A stretch of 45,193 nucleotides of DNA from Candidatus Saccharimonadota bacterium (lineage in GTDB: Bacteria; Patescibacteriota; Saccharimonadia; CAILAD01; BJGX01): positions 1 to 45,193 of the forward strand of contig JBAXNA010000002.1 in assembly GCA_037133995.1 (NCBI GenBank). Reading direction: 5' to 3'. Made by a program: the position numbers and the translations under genes. The notes under the pieces are model-generated. The model did no database searches. It was not told the DNA's origin and saw only the letters and a list, made by a program, of their open reading frames with translations. Below are positions 22,906-35,178 of this stretch, piece after piece. The first letter of the stretch is position 1, and each line of letters opens with the position of its first letter.

Positions 22906-24171
22906 TTATTGGGCGGCTTTTTGAGCAGCCAGTTCTAGAGCCTTTACTAGTTGAGGGTCGGTATTTGAATTGTAGTCTTGGGTAGTTAGCTTGACCTCTA
23001 CGTCAGGCTTAATACCTTCTTTAGAAATGTTTATGCCTTTTGGTGTATACCAGTGAGCCACGGTTACTTTTAAAGAGTCGGTTTTACAGTCGGCGCCAAT
23101 ATTAAGACTACTTAGGCAGATTATTTCTTGTACACTACCCTTACCATAGGTTTTCTCACCAACCAGTACGGCCCGGCCGTTGTCATGAAGGGCACCAGCC
23201 ATAATTTCACTGGCACTGGCTGAGCCTTCATTTACCAAGATAACAACAGGAACTTTGGTGAGGCTACCACCACTCTGTGCATTTATAACTTTATTTTTTT
23301 CATTTCGCGAGCGTTCTTCTACCACAACCCCACTACTCATAAATTCAGAGCTTATTTTGACAGAAGCATCTAAGTAGCCGCCGGGGTTGTCGCGCACATC
23401 AATTACCACGGCCTTGACGCCGGCGTTAGCAAACTCTTGGGCAGCCTTGCTTACGTCATTTGCAGTTTCGGCTCCAAAAGTACGTATTTTGATATAGCCA
23501 ATGTTTCCTGGCTTGATCTCTGTAGTTACACTAGGCACACTTATGTCGTCTCTTATTATTTTTATGTCTTGTGGGGCCGCACCGTCACGCATAATTGTCA
23601 GAGTAACTTCTGTACCTTTGTCGCCACGAATTTTTTTGACAGCTTCGTCTGTAGAGAGGCCACTAGTGTCTTGACCATCTATTGCCACAATCACGTCACC
23701 AGCCCTAATGCCGGCTTTACTGGCAGGAGTACCATCTATTGGGGCAATAACAGTCAATCTATCGTTTTTTGTGCCTATTTCAATACCCACGCCACTTAGC
23801 TTGCCAGTAAGCTGGTCTGAGAGCTCCTTGTTGTCTTTAGCTGTTAAGTAAGTAGTGTAGGGGTCACCAAGGCTGGCTACCATTCCCTCTGTAGCTCCTT
23901 GGCTTTGTTTTTCGCTGTTTATGTCTCCATCAAATTTTTTGTGTAAGATTTCATTTACTTGCCAGAATTTATCAAGATTTATACTGTTTTTTGACCTAGC
24001 TATAGAGTTTGGGCCAATTTGCAGACGTGGGCCGTAGGCATTAAATACAAAACCTATAGCAAAAAATACCACTGCAGTAGCAGCTATTTGCCATATTCTA
24101 ATATGGTTACTAGAATTCGTTGCGGGGGGAGCTTGTTGTGGCGTATTTTTTGGTTCTTGCTGATTATTCAT
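22906..24171 (-). CDS. ctpA: Carboxy-terminal processing (S41) protease with PDZ domain and N-terminal TM anchor
   Basis: PDZ-like segment GIRAGDVIVAIDG, the GSASASEI serine motif and TYGKGS. Confidence 0.85.
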   Translation of the reverse strand: MNNQQEPKNTPQQAPPATNSSNHIRIWQIAATAVVFFAIGFVFNAYGPRLQIGPNSIARSKNSINLDKFWQVNEILHKKFDGDINSEKQSQGATEGMVASLGDPYTTYLTAKDNKELSDQLTGKLSGVGIEIGTKNDRLTVIAPIDGTPASKAGIRAGDVIVAIDGQDTSGLSTDEAVKKIRGDKGTEVTLTIMRDGAAPQDIKIIRDDISVPSVTTEIKPGNIGYIKIRTFGAETANDVSKAAQEFANAGVKAVVIDVRDNPGGYLDASVKISSEFMSSGVVVEERSRNEKNKVINAQSGGSLTKVPVVILVNEGSASASEIMAGALHDNGRAVLVGEKTYGKGSVQEIICLSSLNIGADCKTDSLKVTVAHWYTPKGINISKEGIKPDVEVKLTTQDYNSNTDPQLVKALELAAQKAAQ

Positions 24172-24180
24172 AAGTGTTAA

Positions 24181-24553
24181 GCTATCTTAGCAGATGACCG
24201 TACAGTGTTACAAGACCATTATTGTGCAAGATCATTACCTTGTGGCCAAAACCGTAGCTGTCCCAGCCGTTAAATATTATCTGCCCAGCATCTGCTGCAC
24301 GTACTGGTGGGCTACTGGGGTTAGCGATATCTATGCCATTATGAAATGAGTAGCCACAGACTGTACAAGTAGCTGGCCCGTAGTTTTGAGTCATTATGCC
24401 GTTTGTTACCGAGCGATAGTCAAAAGGCGAACCATTTGGATTAATAAAACTACCTCCATTCAGCACAGAAAAATGCAGGTGAGTTCCGGTTGAGTTGCCG
24501 GTGCTGCCCATGTAGCCAATAATATCACCTTTGTTGACTGAGCCTAGGCTGAC
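24181..24553. repeat. Copy 1 of a 373-bp near-identical direct repeat (M23 module)
   Basis: Aligns base-for-base with 25172..25544 (offset 991) with about 4 mismatches by eye. Confidence 0.9.
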
Positions 24554-25162
24554 GAGACCACCAGAAGTATTCTGGGCGATCATGCTTGTAGCTAAGACGT
24601 TACTGCTCAGGCCAGAATCAACAGGGGGAACAACTAGCGGATTGTCTGGGTTGGTCTGGCCTGCTGAGTCTTGTGGCAAAGTCACTGTACTTTGATTGCT
24701 CAAATCTGTAGTATTAGCTGGCAGACTTGGGCCTGAATCTAATGTTTGCGGATAGTCTGAGGGTGTACTAGAGTATTCTTGCTGTGGCCCCACAGCAGCA
24801 GTCAGCTGGAGTGGTTGATTAGGTTGTTTTGGCAGCTGGGCGAGCTGCGATGCAGCTGTGTCTGTAGCTGGCTGGGGCTGTGGGTAAATTGGCGGCGTAG
24901 GCTTAGCAGTATTGGGGTCGTAGACTGGCTGAGTCTCTGAGTAAACAGTGCTTGCAGGTGTTTCTGCATAGGGCTGTGGTGCAGCTGTAGCTTGAGGCCG
25001 AGCTACAATATTCGGGTAAGCGTAGGATAAGGCAAGACATATCACAGAAAATACCACTGCGGTAGCGGCTACTTGCCTTATCCGGTTTCTAGAACTAGCG
25101 GGCGCTGGAGGTGTCTGCGCTTCGGGTGAGGATGATTTTTCGTGATCTTGTATAGGCTGCAT
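24182..25162 (-). CDS. Membrane-anchored M23 (LytM-type) peptidase with a Pro/Gln-rich linker; catalytic motifs in permuted order
   Basis: TM anchor (AATAVVFSVICLAL). HxH (THLHF) comes before HxxxD (HNGID), and the protein ends at LYGHLLR. Confidence 0.8.
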   Translation of the reverse strand: MQPIQDHEKSSSPEAQTPPAPASSRNRIRQVAATAVVFSVICLALSYAYPNIVARPQATAAPQPYAETPASTVYSETQPVYDPNTAKPTPPIYPQPQPATDTAASQLAQLPKQPNQPLQLTAAVGPQQEYSSTPSDYPQTLDSGPSLPANTTDLSNQSTVTLPQDSAGQTNPDNPLVVPPVDSGLSSNVLATSMIAQNTSGGLVSLGSVNKGDIIGYMGSTGNSTGTHLHFSVLNGGSFINPNGSPFDYRSVTNGIMTQNYGPATCTVCGYSFHNGIDIANPSSPPVRAADAGQIIFNGWDSYGFGHKVMILHNNGLVTLYGHLLR

Positions 25163-25171
25163 AACTTATAA

Positions 25172-25544
25172 GCTATCTTAGCAGATGACCATATAGTGTC
25201 ACAAGACCATTATTGTGCAAGATCATTACCTTGTGGCCAAAACCGTAGCTGTCCCAGCCGTTAAATATTATCTGCCCAGCATCTGCTGCACGTACTGGTG
25301 GGCTACTGGGGTTAGCGATATCTATGCCATTATGAAATGAGTAGCCACAGACTGTACAAGTAGCTGGCCCGTAGTTTTGAGTCATTATGCCGTTTGTTAC
25401 CGAGCGATAGTCAAAAGGCGAACCATTTGGATTAATAAAACTACCTCCATTCAGCACAGAAAAATGCAGGTGAGTTCCGGTTGAGTTGCCGGTGCTGCCC
25501 ATGTAGCCAATAATATCACCCTTGTTGACTGAGCCTAGGCTGAC
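25172..25544. repeat. Copy 2 of a 373-bp near-identical direct repeat (M23 module)
   Basis: See copy 1. Similarity ends abruptly at 25545. Confidence 0.9.
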
Positions 25545-26246
25545 TAAGTTTCCTGACCTAAAAGATTGAAGTGCAGCCGCTGCCTGAGCTGCCACCTGAG
25601 CCTCAGCTTGCTTTCGCTGACCAGAAAGATCAGATACAACTTTCTGGAATTGGGCCTCTTCGCCCTTAGTTTGAGCTAGTAAAGTAGCCTTCTGAGCACG
25701 TTGCCCAGCAATACTATCAACCTGGGCTTTTTGCTGCGCGCTCAGTGTAGTAAGTTCAGTCTTTTTGGCTTCAAGATCTACCTTGATTGCAGCAATCTTA
25801 ACAAGATTATCATCTATTTTTTTCTTGATGGCGGAGAGATACTGCTGCTGGGCCACAAAGTCACTTAAGTTTTTACTAGATGCCACTACCTCTATCGGGG
25901 TAGTTTCTCCCTGCTTATAGACTATCTTGAGATTGTCTTTTAGAATCAATTTTTGCTTTTCTAGCTCAGCATTCTGGGCGTTGATTTTTTCAGTCGTTTG
26001 ATTGAACTGAAGAGTGGTAAGATCTAGTGAGTCTTGGGCTGCATCTATACTACCATTTAGCTCATTTATTGCGCCCTGCAAGGTACTGGCTTCACCTTTT
26101 TTAGCATTAACTGCTTGCTGGTTTTGTTTAATCTGAGTATTGAGAGTATTTATTTTATCTTGTAGTGTTTGTGCAAAAACAGTGCTCGGCGCGAGTAGTA
26201 GTAGTAGAGCAGATATTGAAAGTAGTAATTTTTTAGTGTTTTTCAT
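25173..26246 (-). CDS. Secreted coiled-coil M23 (LytM-type) peptidase (EnvC-like architecture); catalytic motifs in permuted order
   Basis: Signal peptide (LLLLAPSTVFA), about 220 aa of coiled coil, and the same C-terminal 124 aa as the 24182..25162 protein. Confidence 0.8.
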   Translation of the reverse strand: MKNTKKLLLSISALLLLLAPSTVFAQTLQDKINTLNTQIKQNQQAVNAKKGEASTLQGAINELNGSIDAAQDSLDLTTLQFNQTTEKINAQNAELEKQKLILKDNLKIVYKQGETTPIEVVASSKNLSDFVAQQQYLSAIKKKIDDNLVKIAAIKVDLEAKKTELTTLSAQQKAQVDSIAGQRAQKATLLAQTKGEEAQFQKVVSDLSGQRKQAEAQVAAQAAAALQSFRSGNLVSLGSVNKGDIIGYMGSTGNSTGTHLHFSVLNGGSFINPNGSPFDYRSVTNGIMTQNYGPATCTVCGYSFHNGIDIANPSSPPVRAADAGQIIFNGWDSYGFGHKVMILHNNGLVTLYGHLLR

Positions 26247-26252
26247 AATATT

Positions 26253-27356
26253 TTAAAAGTGTAAAAACTGAAGCCCAGCTATATTTACGTCACTTGTTGA
26301 GTAAGATCCTTCCCAGTTAGCATTATATTGACTGACGTGTACTGTGCCATTGCCATTGACCTTCTCGACATACATGGCATGCCCGTATTCACCAGCTGTG
26401 CTAATAGCAATGTCGCCGGGTCTGGGGCTGTTGTCTACAGGTATATCGTAGGCCACAGCGTTGCCAGGCCACTGCTTGGCATTGCCTATACCGCCCCAGT
26501 AAGGCATGCGCCTGCCAGATGCCGCCACTCGCCAAGCAGTGTAGCTTACGCACTGACGCTGAAACATACCCCAGGGGTCGGCAATCAAATTAGGCCAAGG
26601 TGAAGTTGCCCAGGGGTAGCCGCCAGTGCCACCATAAACTACATTGGTGGAATAACCACCAATAATAGCGGCTTGTTGCATTCTAAGCTCATTAATTTTT
26701 GCTGTGTCTTCACCAGCTACTCTGCGATAGTTGGCTTCATCACCTTGAGTTCTTTGAAGTAAGCTCTGCTGTTGGGATCTCTGAGTGGCAATTTGTTCAT
26801 AGGTATTTTTTTGTTGGGTAGACAGCGCAGTAAGTTGTGACTTCTTTTCATCTAAGGCTTTTTTGATAAGTCTTATTTTTTCGAGATTATTATCAATCTT
26901 TTCTCTTATGGCCGAAAGATATTGTTGTTTAGCTACAAAATCACTGAGATTTACGCTAGATGCAATTATTTCAAGCGGGCTAACATAGCCTTCTTTATAA
27001 ATAAGCCTCAGATTGTCTTTTAGAATGCTTCGCTGGTGGTCAAGCTCTCTGTTGGTTGCATTTATATCAGATTGAGTTTCAGAAATTTTGGTATTTGTGA
27101 TGTCGAGTTGGGTTTGTGCAACATTGATTTGGGCCTCTATTGCCGAAAGAGCAGACTTTAGGCTGTCGGCTTCAGCAGTCTTGGCGTTAGCGGCATTTTG
27201 ACTATCGGCCACCTTCTTATTTAAAACTTTGATTTGATCGTCAAATTTGTCTGCCGAAACAACTTTTGGCAACAACAAAATAGCAACTACTCCGAGTGTT
27301 GCCAGTAGTTTTGTTTTTGTCATATTAAGATTTAAAGACTTGACTCTTGAAGACAT
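26253..27356 (-). CDS. Secreted coiled-coil CHAP-domain peptidoglycan hydrolase (PcsB-like architecture)
   Basis: Signal peptide, and a coiled coil homologous to that of the 25173..26246 protein. The C-terminal CHAP domain has Cys (QRQCVSYTAW) and His (GHAMYVEKV). Confidence 0.8.
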   Translation of the reverse strand: MSSRVKSLNLNMTKTKLLATLGVVAILLLPKVVSADKFDDQIKVLNKKVADSQNAANAKTAEADSLKSALSAIEAQINVAQTQLDITNTKISETQSDINATNRELDHQRSILKDNLRLIYKEGYVSPLEIIASSVNLSDFVAKQQYLSAIREKIDNNLEKIRLIKKALDEKKSQLTALSTQQKNTYEQIATQRSQQQSLLQRTQGDEANYRRVAGEDTAKINELRMQQAAIIGGYSTNVVYGGTGGYPWATSPWPNLIADPWGMFQRQCVSYTAWRVAASGRRMPYWGGIGNAKQWPGNAVAYDIPVDNSPRPGDIAISTAGEYGHAMYVEKVNGNGTVHVSQYNANWEGSYSTSDVNIAGLQFLHF

Positions 27357-27392
27357 TGAGTTCTGTCACCCTCCCAAGAGACATTAGATATA

Positions 27393-27420
27393 TTATAACA
27401 AAAAAAGTGCTTATGTTCAA
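27393..27420 (-). promoter_or_regulatory. Sigma70-type promoter of the CHAP/M23/ctpA genes
   Basis: On the minus strand: TTGAAC (27420..27415), a 16-nt spacer, then TATAAT (27398..27393). SD gggaggg lies downstream. Confidence 0.6.
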
Positions 27421-27458
27421 GCTTTATGAGCGGTAATTAGTCGGTTTCTGAGTAAAAA

Positions 27459-28376
27459 CTATATTTTTAAGTATCTTATTAGAGCCAACCAGCTAGAAAT
27501 AATACCTATCAGTATTCCTATGGCAAACATACTGCCAGATACAGCCAAGAAGTGAGAAGCAAAATAGTCTAGGGTTGAGCCAGCACCAAGCTTGTCGGTT
27601 AGAAATGGGCTAACAGCCCGGGTAAATGGAATCAAAATAGCCAGTGAAAGTATAGCTCCAAAAATACCGTATAGAGTACCTTCCACCAAAAATGGGCCGC
27701 GAATAAACCACTTTGTAGCACCTACCAGCTTCATAATTTCTACTTCTTCTCGACGGGTAAAAATAGCCATTCTAATAGTATTAAAAATTATCATCAAAGC
27801 GACTATCAAGAATAAAATACTCAAAATAGCACCTATCCTGCTCACCGAATTACTTATAGATATGACATTCTCTACTACCCCTTGTCGATTGTCGTCTCTG
27901 TTGTCTAGGCTGGTATCGGTAATAATAGTGGCCTCCTCTAGGCTTTTAATATTCCCATTAGAGCTACTTATTTGATCGATATTTGTGAGTTTGACCTCAA
28001 AACTAGCCGGCAGCGGGTTGCCAATCTCTTGAGCAGACTTAGCTAGCTTTTCTCCCTCTGTACTTGAGTTCTTGAGTCTCTCAAGAGCGTCAGTTTTACT
28101 TACGTAGTTCACCGCTGAGACATTTTCAATACCGCCTATCTTGCTTTGCAAAGCTTGTATTTGGTCTTTAGTGGCGTCATCACTCAAAAATATACTCAAG
28201 TCAATCTTGCTTCTAACCTGAGTAAGCTGGGAGCGTACAAAAATACTCGAAAAAGCAAAAAATGTCATTATAAGAATTGTAACCACCATAATTGATGTAG
28301 CAGCTGTACTCAGCCAGGCGTTACGAAAGATATTTTTGAAACCAGCTCGCCAAATTCTTAGAAAAGTTGTCATCAT
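27459..28376 (-). CDS. ftsX: Cell-division ABC transporter permease-like protein FtsX
   Basis: TM1, an extracellular domain and three C-terminal TM helices. The start overlaps the ftsE stop by 4 bp. Confidence 0.88.
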   Translation of the reverse strand: MMTTFLRIWRAGFKNIFRNAWLSTAATSIMVVTILIMTFFAFSSIFVRSQLTQVRSKIDLSIFLSDDATKDQIQALQSKIGGIENVSAVNYVSKTDALERLKNSSTEGEKLAKSAQEIGNPLPASFEVKLTNIDQISSSNGNIKSLEEATIITDTSLDNRDDNRQGVVENVISISNSVSRIGAILSILFLIVALMIIFNTIRMAIFTRREEVEIMKLVGATKWFIRGPFLVEGTLYGIFGAILSLAILIPFTRAVSPFLTDKLGAGSTLDYFASHFLAVSGSMFAIGILIGIISSWLALIRYLKI

Positions 28377-29053
28377 AGTGAGTATTTCCCTACTTTTTCG
28401 TCTTTTACAATTCGGCCACGATTGATTGTTATTACGCGCTTCTTGAGAGCATCTACAATGTCTTTGTTGTGGGTGGTGAGAAGCACGGTGGTTCCAAATC
28501 GATTGATTTTGAGCAGTAGCTCAATGATGTCCCAGGAATTTTTGGGGTCGAGGTTGCCAGTAGGCTCATCTGCAATCAAAATCTTGGGATTGCGCACCAA
28601 GGCCCTGGCTATTGCGGTACGTTGCTTTTCACCACCAGAAAGTTCACCTGGGTAATTGTTCATTTTTTCACTCAAGCCCACGAGCTGAAGTATTTTTGGT
28701 ACAGCTCTTTTGATCTCTTTAGTTTTTACTCCAGAAACTTCTAGTGCAAAGGCCACATTTTCATAAACTGTAAGATTTGGCAAAAGCTTGAAGTCTTGAA
28801 AGACCACTCCAATACGTCTTCGCAAATGAGGGATATTGGCCTTGTCTATACTGTCATAGTCGATACTACCTACAATAATTTTGCCGCTAGTAGGCACCTC
28901 TTCTTTTATAAGTAGCCGTATAAGGGTACTTTTGCCGGCACCAGATGAGCCGACAATAGTTACAAATTCTTTGGGGTTGATGTGAAGCGAGACGCCAGAT
29001 AGTGCCACCGTTTTGTTGGGGTACATAACTGACACTCTATCGAGCAAAATCAT
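28373..29053 (-). CDS. ftsE: Cell-division ATP-binding protein FtsE
   Basis: Walker A GSSGAGKST, signature LSGGEKQR and Walker B LIADEPTGNLD, 226 aa. Confidence 0.92.
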   Translation of the reverse strand: MILLDRVSVMYPNKTVALSGVSLHINPKEFVTIVGSSGAGKSTLIRLLIKEEVPTSGKIIVGSIDYDSIDKANIPHLRRRIGVVFQDFKLLPNLTVYENVAFALEVSGVKTKEIKRAVPKILQLVGLSEKMNNYPGELSGGEKQRTAIARALVRNPKILIADEPTGNLDPKNSWDIIELLLKINRFGTTVLLTTHNKDIVDALKKRVITINRGRIVKDEKVGKYSL

Positions 29054-29134: not shown

Positions 29135-30241
29135 ATGTCAGAAAACAACCTTAGTTTAAAAAATACTATCAGCCAGCTTGCCAGCCTCTTAGAGTCTGTA
29201 GATTTGGCTATTTCAAGTCTAGATCTTGCCCACGATGAAAAAAAGCTACTAGCCGACGAAGACCAAATGTCTAGCCCAGACTTTTGGCTTAATTCACAAA
29301 AAGCCGAAGCTCACAGTAAACAAACAGCAGAGCTTAGGCGCTACGTTTCCAGCTGGCAAGAATTGCGCTCAGACCTACAGACTACATTAGAGCTAGCCCA
29401 GCTAGAAACTGGCGAAGAAGCATCAAGCCAATTTGCTGGGCTACTAAAAGACTTGCAGGCTCGCTCAAATGAGGCTCTTGTAGCAGTCAGGCTCTCAGGC
29501 GAGTTTGATAGAAGTAACGCAATTCTGCAGATATCTGCAGGTGTTGGCGGCACAGATGCTCAAGACTGGGCTCAAATGCTACAAGAAATGTATATTAAAT
29601 ACGCCAACACACACGGCCTGAGTGTAGACATTTTAGACACTTCATATGGTGAAGAAGCCGGAATCAAGTCAACCACTCTAAGAATCTCTGGGCCATTTGC
29701 CTATGGCAAACTAAAAGCCGAAAAAGGCACTCACCGTCTAGTAAGACTTTCGCCATTTAATAGCGACAATCTAAGACAAACTTCTTTTGCACTTGTCGAC
29801 ACCGTGCCAGAAATAGCTCAGGCTGAAGTCAAGCTAGACGAAAAAGACTTGCGAATAGATGTTTATAGAGCTGGCGGTAATGGCGGCCAAAGCGTCAACA
29901 CTACAGATAGCGCAGTGCGAATCACTCATTTACCCACCGGCACAACTGTAGCTATCCAAAACGAGCGCTCACAGCTCAAAAACAAAGCTGTAGCTATGTC
30001 GGTATTGTTCGCCCGCCTCAGCGAGCTGGCTAGAGAACAAAAGCTCAAAGACGTAGCTGAGCTCAGAGGTAGCGTTAGGTCTGCAGACTGGGGTTCGCAA
30101 ATAAGAAGCTATGTTCTCCACCCCTACACCAAAGTCAAAGATCACCGCACCGGCTATGAGACCAGTGATACTAGTGCTGTATTAGGCGGTGAAATTGAGC
30201 CTTTCATACAGGCTTATCTAGATCAAAATATAGTCAAGTAA
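29135..30241 (+). CDS. prfB: Peptide chain release factor 2, encoded in one uninterrupted frame
   Basis: SPF tripeptide (RLSPFNS) and GGQ motif (GGNGGQSVN). The 368-aa ORF is continuous from the ATG. Confidence 0.93.
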   Translation: MSENNLSLKNTISQLASLLESVDLAISSLDLAHDEKKLLADEDQMSSPDFWLNSQKAEAHSKQTAELRRYVSSWQELRSDLQTTLELAQLETGEEASSQFAGLLKDLQARSNEALVAVRLSGEFDRSNAILQISAGVGGTDAQDWAQMLQEMYIKYANTHGLSVDILDTSYGEEAGIKSTTLRISGPFAYGKLKAEKGTHRLVRLSPFNSDNLRQTSFALVDTVPEIAQAEVKLDEKDLRIDVYRAGGNGGQSVNTTDSAVRITHLPTGTTVAIQNERSQLKNKAVAMSVLFARLSELAREQKLKDVAELRGSVRSADWGSQIRSYVLHPYTKVKDHRTGYETSDTSAVLGGEIEPFIQAYLDQNIVK

Positions 30242-30348: not shown

Positions 30349-31602
30349 TTACTTCTTACCTACAGCATGCTTGGCATCACTAATAGATTTTTTGCTTTTT
30401 TGATAAGCATACACACTTGCACTAATTCCTGTCATACCTAGTATTCCAGCAAGACCAGATTCAATACCTGTTTGAGGTAGTGAGCTAGTTGGAGTTACAG
30501 GAGTGATAGGTGTTGGAGGAGTTGGACCTTTTGGGGTCACAATCTGAGCATCATCACAGCTTAGGTATGGTACTTCGGTAGAACGTACACAGCCTATGTT
30601 TGTAAGGGTGTCAACAGCAGTGTCTTTGACCGTTACTTGGTACAAGACGTAGCCATTTACTCCACCGGCGTAGTCACCTACGTTTTGGCCACCAGCTGAA
30701 AACAAGCTGTTGTCAGATAGAGCCATACCGTTAGGGTCGGTGCCGTTATATAGTTTTACAGTGCCAGGAATCAGTTTTAGCTGTTCTGGAAGCTTATCTG
30801 TAAGAGCCATATTGGTCTGGGTAGTTGTGCCTGTGTTTTTAAACGAAAGTCTAAAATACAGTCTTTCACCTGGCTTAGCTTCTAGTTTTTCAACAAAAGC
30901 TTGGCTTGGGCGGGCTACAGTCTTTTCAATAGTGATAGGGGCTGCTTCTACTTTGACCTTAACAATAACGTACATGTCGTTTTCAAAACATCCAGGTACG
31001 TTGCCGTCTTGTGCGTTTTCGCCAATATTGGCGCCAGCTCCAACAATACTGTCAGATACCGGTATCCCAACGCCAGTGTGAGTGTCAGCGTAAGCTGAAC
31101 CAGCTACATAGCTCAAACGATACGGAGTACCGTCTGCACTGGTGAAGTTGGTAGTGTCAAAGACACTACCAGGTTTGGCGTTGTCAGCCGAAATTTGGCT
31201 AACCGCGTTCATTTGTGTGCCAACTCCGTTAGGCAGAGTTATTTTAACTTTTGTGTTTTTGGCGATACCCACATAGTTGTGAGCGGCGTCATTTAGGGCT
31301 GAGTCAGCGTTATTGTGTATGTAAGTACGCAATTTAATTTCATCGCCAACTTTTACTTTGATAGGGTCTTGAAAACCACCTGGTGTGGTGTTCCACTGCT
31401 TACCATCAAAGAACTGTTGTTCGTTACCGTCTGGAACATTGGTAAACGAGTTGAAGGTTACATAGTCGAAGCCTGTTGTATTTGGGCCTGTCCAGGCTTT
31501 TAGCGGACGGTCAGGGTACCATCCAGCAACGGTCATAACAGGTACTAGCACTGCAATAGCAGTAGCCAAGACACCTAGACCAATTTTACTAATTAGTTTC
31601 AT
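30349..31602 (-). CDS. Sortase-anchored surface protein (LPQTG sorting signal, DUF11/CARDB-like repeat region)
   Basis: The C-terminus has LPQTG, a hydrophobic stretch (IESGLAGILGMTGISASVYAY) and a basic tail. An N-terminal signal or TM segment is present. The ATG at 31602 follows aaaaaggaga; the longer ORF reaching 31704 is rejected. Confidence 0.85.
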   Translation of the reverse strand: MKLISKIGLGVLATAIAVLVPVMTVAGWYPDRPLKAWTGPNTTGFDYVTFNSFTNVPDGNEQQFFDGKQWNTTPGGFQDPIKVKVGDEIKLRTYIHNNADSALNDAAHNYVGIAKNTKVKITLPNGVGTQMNAVSQISADNAKPGSVFDTTNFTSADGTPYRLSYVAGSAYADTHTGVGIPVSDSIVGAGANIGENAQDGNVPGCFENDMYVIVKVKVEAAPITIEKTVARPSQAFVEKLEAKPGERLYFRLSFKNTGTTTQTNMALTDKLPEQLKLIPGTVKLYNGTDPNGMALSDNSLFSAGGQNVGDYAGGVNGYVLYQVTVKDTAVDTLTNIGCVRSTEVPYLSCDDAQIVTPKGPTPPTPITPVTPTSSLPQTGIESGLAGILGMTGISASVYAYQKSKKSISDAKHAVGKK

Positions 31603-31994
31603 ATAAATATTCTCCTTTTTGAGATATTTTAGGTTTAATGTGATATTTAAAGTCAGAGATAAGTAGTATGTATTGGGGGGCCGCGAATACAGCTCGCAAG
31701 ACATGCTTTATTATCTAGACATTTGGGGTCTTTTGGAATTGTGCAAATATGATAATATCAAGGGGCATTTACAGTATTCGAACGAAACTCCGAATCAGCA
31801 CTTATAATAGCATATGATTATTCTTATGTCAATACTTTTGCATAACATTTATGTATCGAGAGATGGGTTCAAAAACAGGCAATATAGTAAGGATTATAGT
31901 ATATAGGCATATTTAGCTTTATAACTCTTATGTATATATGTCAAACAGCTCACTTTGTAGCTCTATACTTTTTATCTGGTGGCTCTTCTATTAA

Positions 31995-32041
31995 TAAAAA
32001 AAGACCCCCGTCTCTAGAGCTAAGTGCTCTAGAGACGGGGG
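31995..32041 (-). terminator. Intrinsic terminator after the 32048..33004 gene
   Basis: Perfect 16-bp stem (32005..32020 pairs with 32026..32041), a 5-nt loop, and a minus-strand U-run (31995..32004). Confidence 0.8.
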
Positions 32042-32047
32042 TAAATG

Positions 32048-33004
32048 TTAGCCAGGTGCCGTTTGCGGTACAGTCACTGGTATGGTCTGAACCGGTCTGG
32101 GCTCTGGCAAAGGTGCTGGCGGCGGTAGCGTCACAGGAGGTGGCGCAACAGTCGCGGTAGGCTCCACTTTATCAGGTGGCGGAGGCGTTGGGTTTACAGG
32201 CCTAGGCCCGCAATCTCCCAGCGCACAGGCTGCAGGGTCGTTGCCGATTGAACGACTCGGATCCTTGCAGTTATACCCTGGTGGGCAGCCTCCCGTTGTT
32301 GTGGGCGGTGCCTTTGGGGTAGTTACCACTGGCGGTGAGATTGGCCTTGGCTTGCTTGGTGTGCTTGGTGCTGGCTGGTCTAGCGTGGGAACCCCCACAA
32401 AACTAGTAGCAACCGGCTGAAATCCGCAGTCCAGCTTGTAATTAAGCTGAGTGCCAGCGCAGTCGAAGCGCAAAACACTGTAGCTGGGCTTTTCAGGGCT
32501 AGCCTGAAAAATACCAGGAATGTCAGAGGAGCTCGCGCCCTTCCGCATCCACAATGTTTGGTAATTACCAGACATTGTCTGCAGGCTTGCACTGCAGCTA
32601 CTCTCTCGAGTCTCAAGACTCATGACAGTGAGGCGCCAGGCCTCTTTATTGTCAATAAGTGTTTGGGTTTTAGCCAAACGCTCTTGAGGGCTGGTATAAA
32701 CACCAGCCTGGTACTCTTGGTGAGCCACGGCCAAGGCCGGGTCACTACAGCGGCGATTATGCAGCTCGCTTTTTTGAGCTTCAACATCAGCACTAGCTGA
32801 GGCCGGGCCAAAAAAGTTTGCAGCAACATCATAGGCAAAAAAGTGTACACTGTCAGCGCAATTGGCACTGGCATTCACTACCAGGGTCGTGCTTGGTGGC
32901 ACGGCTGTAATGGGGTTCGCCAGTAAGACGAACCCAAACAATAGTAGCACTACAGTTGAGGCAGCTGCCCCAACGAGCGCCCGCTTCTTATTTTCATTAA
33001 CCAT
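32048..33004 (-). CDS. GC-rich ORFan: signal-anchored secreted protein with a Cys-containing domain and a Pro-rich tail
   Basis: SD aaggggag, an N-terminal TM segment (VVLLLFGFVLLA), 10 Cys residues and a PPPP-rich C-terminus. GC content is visibly higher than the flanks. Confidence 0.7.
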   Translation of the reverse strand: MVNENKKRALVGAAASTVVLLLFGFVLLANPITAVPPSTTLVVNASANCADSVHFFAYDVAANFFGPASASADVEAQKSELHNRRCSDPALAVAHQEYQAGVYTSPQERLAKTQTLIDNKEAWRLTVMSLETRESSCSASLQTMSGNYQTLWMRKGASSSDIPGIFQASPEKPSYSVLRFDCAGTQLNYKLDCGFQPVATSFVGVPTLDQPAPSTPSKPRPISPPVVTTPKAPPTTTGGCPPGYNCKDPSRSIGNDPAACALGDCGPRPVNPTPPPPDKVEPTATVAPPPVTLPPPAPLPEPRPVQTIPVTVPQTAPG

Positions 33005-33104
33005 TAGGTGCTCCCCTTTCAGGGCCTCTGCCTTTCGAATTTATCTACCTTCTCACACAGGCTCATATGAGAAGATGTCAAAACTTGAATTGTAAATGTA
33101 TTGG

Positions 33105-33140
33105 TTTTGGTTGGGGAGATTAATCTCTCCCCAACCAAAA
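33105..33140. other. 15-bp stem-loop downstream of the 33159..33890 gene
   Basis: 33105..33119 pairs with 33126..33140 (ttttggttggggaga / tctccccaaccaaaa). There is no clear U-tract. Confidence 0.5.
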
Positions 33141-33158
33141 CAACTGGCTCCCGCGAGC

Positions 33159-33890
33159 TTACTGGCTCTGGCCAAATCTTTCGGCCCACCAGGCCTCAGA
33201 CGTGGTCTGGGGTGGCGGCGTAGGTGCACCAACAGAAGTTGGCACTAGCACCTGTGTGCGGGTTGGCTGTTGAGCAACAACCACAGCTGCAGGCTGCACA
33301 ACCTCTACCACTTGCACAACCTCAGTTGGCTCTTGAGCCGGTGCTGGGGCTGTAGTGGTGCTGGTAGGCCTACTAGCTGGCTTGCGCTTGCCAAGAAGAC
33401 AAACACAGGCCGCAAATGTAAATGCCATTGCAACAAAAGTATAGGCCACAACGTGGTAGTTCATAATGCTGCGAGCAGCACTAGAAATTACACCGTTGTT
33501 GCCACCTTCCACTGCTAAGAACGGATCCCAGCGGGCTGAGAACACCAGAATGTGAAAACAAACTGCTGAAATCAAACCTACAACAGCCGTGATGACTGTT
33601 GAGCCCAACCAGTCAATCTCGTGATTGAGGGCTTCGAGCCCCGTCACACGCTCATCAAGACCAGCCTGGTTGTCACCAAGCTGAGTGATTCGGCCTTGCT
33701 GGACAGCCAACTGTGTACCTTGAGCTGCTACAACTGTAGCAGTGTCGTCAACGTCGGTTCTGAGGCCGACAATACTTGAGTCGTGGTTAGCAAGCCTTGT
33801 GTCTACTACATCGTTCACTTCTGCTTGTGCAGCTAGCATCTCAGATAGCTGTCTCTTGGCCTTGTCTAGGTTGACTTGTGCTGAGGGCAT
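33159..33890 (-). CDS. GC-rich ORFan: N-terminal coiled coil, two TM helices and a Pro/Thr-rich tail
   Basis: SD aagggggg. TM segments VITAVVGLISAVCFHILVF and VVAYTFVAMAFTFAACVCLL. Confidence 0.7.
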   Translation of the reverse strand: MPSAQVNLDKAKRQLSEMLAAQAEVNDVVDTRLANHDSSIVGLRTDVDDTATVVAAQGTQLAVQQGRITQLGDNQAGLDERVTGLEALNHEIDWLGSTVITAVVGLISAVCFHILVFSARWDPFLAVEGGNNGVISSAARSIMNYHVVAYTFVAMAFTFAACVCLLGKRKPASRPTSTTTAPAPAQEPTEVVQVVEVVQPAAVVVAQQPTRTQVLVPTSVGAPTPPPQTTSEAWWAERFGQSQ

Positions 33891-34005
33891 TACGCCCCCC
33901 TTTCTGTGTTGTTTCGGATATTAGGTACTGGTCACTGGTGAAATAAGTCTTTTACGAATCTCACCAGAGTGCAAAACCTGTGGTTGAAATATGGGTTTAA
34001 ATTGT

Positions 34006-34059: not shown

Positions 34060-35178
34060 CTAGGCCAGGCTTTCTATCCGCATAATAACAGATCGGGCCC
34101 GATCAAGAAACTTCTGGGTGAATTCGTCAAAATCTACTGTGCCTTCTGGCTCGGTATCATTCGGTGGAATTTCCTCTGGAGTATCTTTGAGCTGTGGTGC
34201 CTCTGGAGCCTCAGGCTCCTCGGCCTTAGGGCCGCAGACAATGTACGGCACTGGAGGCTGTTCATCTTTGGCTTCCACTTTGGTTTCAGCTTTGGCGCTA
34301 GCCTCAACTTCAACTTCAGTTTCTTGCTGTGAATTAGACTCAGTCTCAGCCTCTTTCTTGATGCGTGCAATGGCTTCGGCAATATCAGCCTCAGACTTGG
34401 CTTCTGCTTCAGCCTTGGCTTTAGCATTTTCCATTCGCCTGATTCTATCAATTTGATCGGCCATGTTGGGCACATCTTGATGCTCAGCATCAGCTACTGG
34501 AGCTTCTGCTACAGACTGCTGCTTCTGCTTAGCCTTAGCTTCAGCGTCTGCCTTAGCATTGGCTTTAGCCTTGGCTTCAGCATCTGTCTTGGCTTTCGCT
34601 TCAGCATTAGCCTTGACGATAGCATCAAATTCACAGGCCTCTTGAAAAAGTCGCTCGGCCTCAAACGCGTCTAGCAACTTTAGCCCATTGGCTTGGTTAT
34701 TAAACATCTTGAACTTGATGCCAAACAGCGAAAGTAAGTCCTTCACCTTGATGCCCAAGCGGGCTGCAATGGTAGAGGCTGGCTCAACAACTGAAGTGTT
34801 GCTGTCGTCAGCTTCTTGCTCTGCCCAAACATCATTGCTTGGTGGTGCCGGCTCGCCCTCAAAAAACTCTTCATTGAGCAGGGTCTTTGTGCCAGGCTCT
34901 GCCTTGTCATCTTCGGCTTTCGCTTCAGCTTTTGCAGCCTTTGCAGAAACTCCAAGGACTTTCCTGACCCTAGTCATAGAGACAAGATCGCTGCCCTTCT
35001 TGGCCTTACCATCTGCCTTAAGCACCTGCTTGAGAGTTACCTCAAGCTCTTTTGCTGCTTCAGATGCAGTTGAACGCTTCCGATTTTTTCGGGCGGGTTT
35101 CTCTGGTACATCAGTGCTTGAGAAATCAATCTCAAGCTCACCAATATCTTTCAATGACTTAACAACTTTTGCGGCCAT
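34060..35178 (-). CDS. Highly charged ORFan with (A/E)AKAK repeats (TolA-like helical low complexity)
   Basis: Strong SD aaggagg before the ATG at 35178. Shadow ORFs occur in several other frames because of the low-complexity sequence. Confidence 0.65.
   Translation of the reverse strand: MAAKVVKSLKDIGELEIDFSSTDVPEKPARKNRKRSTASEAAKELEVTLKQVLKADGKAKKGSDLVSMTRVRKVLGVSAKAAKAEAKAEDDKAEPGTKTLLNEEFFEGEPAPPSNDVWAEQEADDSNTSVVEPASTIAARLGIKVKDLLSLFGIKFKMFNNQANGLKLLDAFEAERLFQEACEFDAIVKANAEAKAKTDAEAKAKANAKADAEAKAKQKQQSVAEAPVADAEHQDVPNMADQIDRIRRMENAKAKAEAEAKSEADIAEAIARIKKEAETESNSQQETEVEVEASAKAETKVEAKDEQPPVPYIVCGPKAEEPEAPEAPQLKDTPEEIPPNDTEPEGTVDFDEFTQKFLDRARSVIMRIESLA

Follow-up and report, generated by a model that had tools for sequence, protein, structure and literature searches.

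Bacterial division depends centrally on the control of cell wall hydrolysis by FtsEX, a step under active study, one question being by what means a single mechanotransmitter can activate very different enzymes. In E. coli, P. aeruginosa, and V. cholerae, FtsEX works with EnvC (6tpi, 8hd0, 8i6o, 8tzl), a secreted two-helix hairpin with a degenerate C-terminal M23/LytM-type domain, which uses a restraining arm to activate amidases. Residues 114-160 of EnvC contact two FtsX extracellular domains (PMC11627006). In Streptococcus pneumoniae, the FtsEX partner PcsB (4cgk) joins a coiled coil to a CHAP domain with its Cys and His, while RipC of M. tuberculosis and CwlO of B. subtilis carry NlpC/P60 domains on their coiled coils. 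A further arrangement, in which ftsE and ftsX are followed by genes for a (coiled-coil) M23 protein and an S41 protease, occurs in Clostridia, Paenibacillus, Parvimonas, and others. Here we describe a related cluster on the minus strand of contig JBAXNA010000002.1 from a Candidatus Saccharimonadota bacterium; “the window” denotes the whole stretch of DNA analyzed, 45,193 nucleotides (nt). Saccharibacteria are ultrasmall epibionts for which few division factors are known. The cluster resembles the FtsEX-EnvC systems in pairing ftsE-ftsX with a secreted hairpin protein ending in an M23/LytM-type domain, and the FtsEX-PcsB system in its coiled-coil CHAP protein, in a sequence match to PcsB, and in a Gram-positive-type envelope. 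What sets it apart is a conserved circular permutation of the M23 domain, together with interchangeable catalytic domains in one slot between ftsX and the protease gene ctpA.

The permuted protein, cc-M23perm (357 residues; 25173..26246, minus strand), consists of a signal peptide, a two-helix coiled coil, and an M23 domain whose halves stand in exchanged order. The canonical motif order HxxxD...xxHL...HxH is absent from it; reading from the coiled coil, GDIIGYMGSTGNSTGTHLHF (HxH) comes first, SFHNGIDIA (HxxxD) follows, and TLYGHLLR precedes the stop, so that the chain ends three residues past YGHL, which holds the catalytic His354. The C-half, placed first, covers residues 234-275 (GYMGSTGNSTGTHLHF, with H259 and H261; 25422..25547, minus strand) and aligns with residues 302-339 of the M23 peptidase 3slu_A. 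The N-half, placed last, covers residues 276-357 (HNGID with H305 and D309, YGHL with H354; 25176..25421, minus strand) and aligns with 3slu_A 243-295 and with Pfam positions 2-52 of 96. Profile and pairwise searches agree on the exchange: Pfam finds two M23 stretches, the best of which puts residues 304-355 on profile positions 2-52 of 96, and phmmer against the PDB maps query residues 302-355 to 243-295 of 3slu and query residues 237-274 to 302-339, that is, in reversed order. When residues 276-357 were moved before residues 231-275 in silico, Pfam returned one match (2-96/96) at 92.8 bits, compared with 85.2 bits as two partials; since the re-joined halves give an uninterrupted match, the junction needs neither insertion nor deletion. 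The M23 domain of cc-M23perm is circularly permuted, an M23-family homologue with altered topology. LytM belongs to a fold class called the “duplicated hybrid motif”, which has internal pseudo-symmetry, and the structure could therefore tolerate a cut at the half-domain boundary. A model of the domain alone by AlphaFold2 (AF2) has a mean predicted local distance difference test score (pLDDT) of 91 and a predicted template modeling score of 0.85. The original prediction had described this protein as EnvC-like, with a LytM domain that keeps all catalytic residues; the residues are indeed all there, H259, H261, H305, D309, and H354 being invariant across 27 permuted members with identities as low as about 30%, while the canonical LytM domain gives way to a circular permutant. 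Because all five catalytic residues are intact, cc-M23perm is probably an enzyme and is not filed here as an EnvC-type activator.

Of the 120 homologues listed, 44 have the permuted motif order, the weaker matches being canonical coiled-coil M23 proteins; permuted proteins are about 50 residues shorter than these (~355 vs. ~410). In a wider census, the 126-residue domain was searched against 1.84 billion cluster representatives and the best 150 clusters (50% identity) were classed by motif order: ~29 were permuted (25 by motif order plus 4 with a variant HxxxD), 60 canonical, and ~45 tandem (N-C-N-C or N-C-N). The names of distant permuted members carry no taxonomy that would show how far past Saccharibacteria the permutation extends. 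Tandem M23 domains are the expected kind of intermediate if the permutation arose by duplication and trimming. Many of the top matches to the permuted domain are tandem N-C-N-C proteins (within P0134-P0278, e.g., P0135, P0144, and P0163); P0163 itself, at 237 residues, reads N-C-N and ends three residues past xGHL, which gives it the look of a duplication-and-trimming intermediate, although it may be a fragment. A separate feature of the permuted domain is a CxxC pair (ATCTVCGY; window 25350-25361, residues 296-299) in the loop that links the old C-terminus to the old N-terminus, where it could form a disulfide or a metal staple; the pair recurs in the distant P0037, P0056, and P0070, and gives way to Trp/Tyr in others.

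Among peptidoglycan-hydrolase superfamilies, permutation of the catalytic domain has a precedent in the NlpC/P60 families YaeF/poxvirus G6R and LRAT-like (PMC6403190), which differ from the permuted M23 domain in fold and chemistry. In the literature searched, which covered only a minority of subscription-journal papers, these were the only permuted peptidoglycan-hydrolase domains mentioned, no description of a permuted M23/LytM domain was found (an earlier report is possible), and nothing was found on FtsEX partners in Saccharibacteria. A conserved and apparently active permuted M23 domain would add a topology to the family of lysostaphin and LytM. It also bears on annotation, as profile searches return two partial M23 matches for such proteins and some are mislabeled as EnvC activators.

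The scaffold that carries the permuted domain is shared with the protein encoded next to it. That protein, cc-CHAP (367 residues; 26253..27356, minus strand), is PcsB-like, with a signal peptide, a two-helix coiled coil, and a CHAP domain (Pfam CHAP E=2.5e-16, residues 261-345) in which both catalytic residues are found, Cys269 (QRQCV) and His326 (YGHA); S. pneumoniae PcsB (4cgk_A) matches its residues 158-348 at E=1.8e-5. Near its N-terminus, each coiled-coil protein has a hydrophobic segment that fits a signal peptide. Their coiled coils are collinear paralogues, as had been proposed, with 89 of 187 residues identical (48%) in a gap-free BLASTP alignment (E=4e-57). Identity between them is highest at the hairpin tip (13/15 at residues 125-139). 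In cc-M23perm, the tip (residues 110-140, YKQGETTPIEVVASSKNLSDFVAQQQYLSAI; 25827..25919, minus strand) is the proposed FtsX-binding site, and S128, Y110, E119, L127, and Y136 vary little or not at all in the 27-sequence family alignment. Its motif YKQGETTPIEVVASS aligns with FRQGEHTGIQLILSG of EnvC (residues 125-139, the alignment extending to 125-141), and the whole cc-M23perm/EnvC alignment is collinear, the tip motif (Y/F)(K/R)QGE included. The aligned EnvC residues 125-141 belong to the segment through which EnvC binds the extracellular domains of FtsX (PMC11627006), and from this we infer that the tip of the coiled coil binds FtsX.

The AF2 model of full-length cc-M23perm (mean pLDDT 82) agrees with this architecture, showing helices 28-113 and 127-230 joined at residues 114-126 and then a beta domain. 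Its best Foldseek match is EnvC in the FtsE/FtsX/EnvC complex (8tzl_E, E=2.7e-5), a result driven by the coiled coil that carries little information on the catalytic domain; the RipA coiled coil (6ewy) also matches (TMt 0.69). In the DSSP assignment of the model, helix 127-230 enters the beta domain directly, with no additional helix between them, and the coiled coil leads straight into the strand before the HxH motif. With no intervening helix in the model and ~50 residues fewer than in canonical relatives, a restraining arm of the EnvC type is not evident, and the gating of activity may differ. In a neighbor-joining tree of the coiled-coil region only, computed without support values, CHAP- and M23-bearing scaffolds of Saccharibacteria form neighboring groups and distant permuted-M23 scaffolds fall outside; this is only suggestive of domain replacement following scaffold duplication.

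Variation among relatives amounts to a natural domain-swap experiment on this scaffold. Contigs with cc-M23 homologues (the named homologues being from Candidatus Saccharibacteria) share the neighborhood prfB-ftsE-ftsX-[hydrolase slot]-ctpA-pyrG-rpmA, of which prfB-ftsE-ftsX-[slot]-ctpA-pyrG is kept from 92% to 31% identity. The slot holds cc-CHAP plus cc-M23 in loci L081-L085 and L092-L097 (relatives at 92% to 58% identity) and in L089 (31% identity), where the M23 gene is relocated upstream of ftsE; it holds cc-M23 alone in L086 and L088, cc-CHAP alone in L090 and L091, and a permuted followed by a canonical cc-M23 in L087. The same scaffold in the same slot may thus carry CHAP, permuted M23, or, in L087, canonical M23 beside permuted, which shows a scaffold independent of the catalytic domain it carries. 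This natural variation supports the idea of one scaffold with two catalytic domains; the original prediction of a single FtsX-type coiled coil bearing two different enzymes fits both the paralogy and the ftsX-ctpA slot that holds CHAP, M23, or both. Scattering of the hydrolases in related genomes would have told against it; linkage to ftsEX and to the S41 protease is instead conserved. As a separate observation, locus L087 (7001-9415, a “bacterium CG2_30_37_16”-type contig) encodes ftsX, a permuted cc-M23 (373 residues), and then a canonical cc-M23 (408 residues; a single Pfam match, 2-89/96), and this side-by-side occurrence of both topologies is possibly a clue to the origin of the permutation.

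Beyond Saccharibacteria, a scan of a genome collection gave 80 loci chosen by the HxH motif, which all M23 enzymes have, and these are mostly distant canonical proteins from other phyla, with no close relatives among them. The order ftsE-ftsX-M23-S41, in the same orientation, is present in about 24 of the 80 loci listed, mainly in Clostridia, Paenibacillus, and other Bacillota, where the M23 domain is canonical and there is no CHAP paralogue. The module as such is not new, contrary to what had been implied, its gene order being ancient and, in Bacillota, widespread; the cluster in the window is a conserved, largely ordinary FtsEX-hydrolase-CtpA module. It differs from FtsEX-PcsB in that the CHAP gene lies directly 3′ of ftsX, beside a paralogue with a different catalytic domain; from FtsEX-RipC and FtsEX-CwlO, with which it shares a coiled coil bearing the catalytic domain, in that those partners carry NlpC/P60 domains; and from FtsEX-EnvC in that cc-M23perm keeps all catalytic residues, is circularly permuted, and has no restraining helix in the AF2 model.

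A third hydrolase gene in the cluster, which had been counted as part of a six-gene module, does not belong to the conserved core. TM-M23 (24182..25162, minus strand) is a chimera of an N-terminal tail and transmembrane (TM) anchor paralogous to the 5′ end of ctpA (hydrophobic segment at residues 27-54), a linker of ~145 residues rich in P, T, Q, A, and S (window 24550-25012), and a copy of the permuted M23 domain, CxxC pair included. Its 3′ end and that of cc-M23perm form a direct repeat (24182..24553 and 25173..25544, offset 991 nt) with 330 nt at 100% identity and the last 372 nt at 98.9%; the 3′ ends of the two genes differ at 4 of 366 nt, all synonymous, and the proteins are identical across 123 residues. 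The TM-M23 stop codon, spacer, N-terminal tail, and membrane anchor align with those of ctpA at an offset of 985 nt, against 991 nt for the repeat. Of about 13 non-redundant related loci, just 2 carry TM-M23, namely the window and L085, and relatives have five genes; TM-M23 is a recent, strain-level chimera that arose via segmental duplication of a unit made of the M23 domain, stop, spacer, and ctpA 5′ end. A simple 991-nt tandem duplication was rejected as its origin, the linker being only ~25% identical to the coiled coil at that offset. The linker, compared by blastn and tblastx with the remainder of the window in search of its source, had only matches at chance level.

The two M23 copies of each genome differ by 3-4 nt, compared with 40-45 of 366 nt between the M23 domains of the window and those of L085, a pattern characteristic of gene conversion that postdates the separation of the strains; gene conversion apparently keeps TM-M23 homogenized with its neighbor. 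The whole TM-M23 gene is 94% identical in nucleotides between the window and L085, and its unique part is clearly orthologous; judged from the same whole-gene figure, the linker seems well conserved. The M23 domain of L081 is only 9 nt from that of L085, yet L081 lacks TM-M23, owing either to loss by recombination between the direct repeats or to collapse of the repeat by the assembler.

As predicted, the cluster consists of six open reading frames (ORFs) that follow one another head to tail along the minus strand, in the order ftsE, ftsX, cc-CHAP, cc-M23perm, TM-M23, and S41 protease; their coordinates match, and Pfam confirms every domain. From ftsE to ctpA, consecutive genes are spaced by -4, 102, 6, 10, and 10 nt. 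FtsE (226 residues; 28373..29053) is an ABC ATPase (Pfam ABC_tran E=1e-37) with Walker A (GSSGAGKS), signature (LSGGE), and Walker B (ILIADEP) motifs. FtsX (305 residues; 27459..28376), whose gene overlaps ftsE by 4 nt, is a permease with an extracellular domain (Pfam FtsX_ECD, residues 60-147; FtsX, residues 184-304) that matches the solved FtsX chains 8ymc_C and 8hd0_C at E of about 1e-21 (phmmer); its four hydrophobic segments lie at about 19-49, 171-208, 229-260, and 272-305, with the extracellular domain between the first two. The hydrolase genes and ctpA, packed 6-10 nt apart, stand behind a conserved promoter-like site. This site (TTGAAC, 17 nt, extended -10 TGnTATAAT; 27392..27420, minus strand), in the 102-nt gap between ftsX and cc-CHAP, matches the consensus at 10 of 12 positions plus the TG, in AT-rich DNA where such matches are frequent (22 found vs. 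11.7 expected). An internal promoter had been proposed upstream of the hydrolases, and the comparison with relatives agrees: in L081, L083, and L085 the -35, spacing, -10, downstream leader, and GGGAGGG ribosome-binding site are invariant, despite a diverged upstream half of the spacer. This makes a reasonable phylogenetic footprint for a putative promoter. The cluster closes with a ctpA-like S41 protease (421 residues; 22906..24171, minus strand) that has an N-terminal TM anchor (residues 24-47), a PDZ domain, and a CtpB_N-like match (Pfam Peptidase_S41 E=1e-51), with GSASASE (316) as its Ser motif and TYGKG (341) as its Lys motif. In the CtpA-LbcA system of P. aeruginosa and the Prc-NlpI system of E. 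coli, proteases with S41 and PDZ domains are associated with hydrolases of the M23 and NlpC/P60 types; the protease here differs in being membrane-anchored and in adjoining its presumed substrates.

Taken together, the cluster is best read, and with fair assurance, as a cell-separation hydrolase module in which FtsEX drives two coiled-coil clients, one with CHAP and one with permuted M23, under control of the S41 protease. FtsE and FtsX, as ATPase and as permease with an extracellular domain, would form the usual type VII ABC mechanotransmitter. The antiparallel two-helix hairpin common to the two secreted paralogues would dock by its conserved tip on the FtsX extracellular domains, and ATP-driven movement of FtsX, transmitted via the hairpin, would free or activate the catalytic domain at the far end. 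Because both clients would dock by the same hairpin tip, they may compete for, or alternate on, one FtsEX, with CHAP and M23 presumably cutting different bonds in the septal wall. Trimming or degradation of the hydrolases, limiting their lifetime, would most likely fall to the membrane-anchored S41/PDZ protease, whose gene lies 10 nt downstream, while TM-M23, having no coiled coil, would be a membrane-tethered, FtsX-independent copy of the same enzyme. Given how few division factors are known in Saccharibacteria, the module is probably a main part of their cell-separation machinery.

By shifting the point where the regulatory coiled coil joins the fold, the permutation opens the coupling mechanism to direct testing. 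It may not be neutral: with the second coiled-coil helix fused to the HxH strand-loop and the chain ending after YGHL, movement of the hairpin could assemble or distort the zinc site, an alternative coupling of FtsEX to a live M23 site that would replace occlusion by a restraining arm. We put this forward as a speculative and rather unlikely proposal; if it were true, the Saccharibacteria slot, with CHAP, permuted M23, and canonical M23, would hold a natural series of gating solutions on one scaffold.

Several points weigh against the module reading as a whole. A Foldseek search with the domain alone puts lysostaphin M23 domains on top (prob 0.96, TM 0.53, 81 columns), which is consistent with an M23 fold, but at a non-significant E=0.54; a sequence-ordered aligner can be expected to score permutants poorly, and both the fold and the gathering of the five catalytic residues around one zinc site are presumed. 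The isolated coiled coil matches EnvC weakly (E=0.016), and cc-CHAP scores 21.4 bits against Pfam CC_PcsB, under the cut-off of 27. That CtpA would act on the hydrolases is proposed from adjacency and from analogy with the CtpA and Prc systems. Saccharibacteria being epibiotic, a role against the host wall is also conceivable: the hydrolases might remodel or attack the wall of the host, with adjacency to ftsEX merely an inherited gene order. The flexible TM-M23 tether of ~145 residues could reach past the cell's own wall, and slot content differs among lineages, as might suit such tools of a Saccharibacterium. However, the same ftsE-ftsX-M23-S41 order occurs in free-living Bacillota and the part of the coiled coil conserved best is its tip, the presumed contact with FtsX, and we give a host-directed function little credence.

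Other explanations take the catalytic domain or the gene order differently. The overall architecture of cc-M23perm and its best structural match are those of EnvC, and some homologues are labeled “septal ring factor EnvC (AmiA/AmiB activator)” by JGI, which would suit a regulator that activates another hydrolase, such as an amidase, without cutting peptidoglycan itself. However, EnvC and DipM are without zinc ligands (PMC11627006), in contrast to the invariant catalytic residues here, and the cluster's genes, by ORF list and Pfam, include no amidase gene; a purely regulatory cc-M23perm is quite doubtful. It is likewise improbable, in our estimate, that the cluster is a conserved neighborhood only, with FtsEX serving divisome assembly and the two coiled-coil hydrolases acting independently of it. 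The control of RipA in Corynebacteriales is reportedly independent of FtsEX (PMC9897464), and the hydrolases have a promoter-like site of their own, but linkage survives very deep divergence and catalytic-domain swaps, and the hairpin tip is conserved and EnvC-like. An artefact of assembly or gene calling, caused by the ~370-nt repeat, was considered as the source of the permuted order or of the third hydrolase gene, as the repeat common to both M23 genes exceeds typical assembly k-mers and L081, the nearest relative of L085, is without TM-M23. We rejected it as extremely unlikely: dozens of independent clusters and assemblies without any repeat encode the permuted order in one unbroken ORF, TM-M23 has about 600 nt of unique sequence and occupies an equivalent position in two assemblies that are only ~89-93% identical in the flanking genes, and assembly collapse explains its absence in some relatives more plausibly than its presence here.

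A few observations concern the surroundings of the cluster. In close relatives, as in the window (29135-30241), prfB and ftsE are divergently oriented; in the more distant Saccharibacteria compared (L086, L087, and L089-L091), prfB is co-directional with ftsE and upstream of it, which points to a local inversion of prfB in this lineage. In L089, on a 405-kb contig (11014-12181 and 12721-14341), separate PDZ (188 residues) and S41 (192 residues) pieces make up ctpA, and pyrG is split too; these are probably frameshift errors of long-read assembly, not true pseudogenes. Beyond prfB, the window encodes a 451-residue surface protein (30349-31704, minus strand) with an LPQTG sortase-type signal, a C-terminal anchor, and weak DUF11/CLIPPER-like matches, which is conserved upstream of prfB in relatives. 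Window 32001-34000 has a G+C content of 52.6%, compared with 40-46% in the rest of the window, and the ORFs at 32048-33004, 33159-33890, and 34060-35178 have no Pfam match, nor do their counterparts in relatives.

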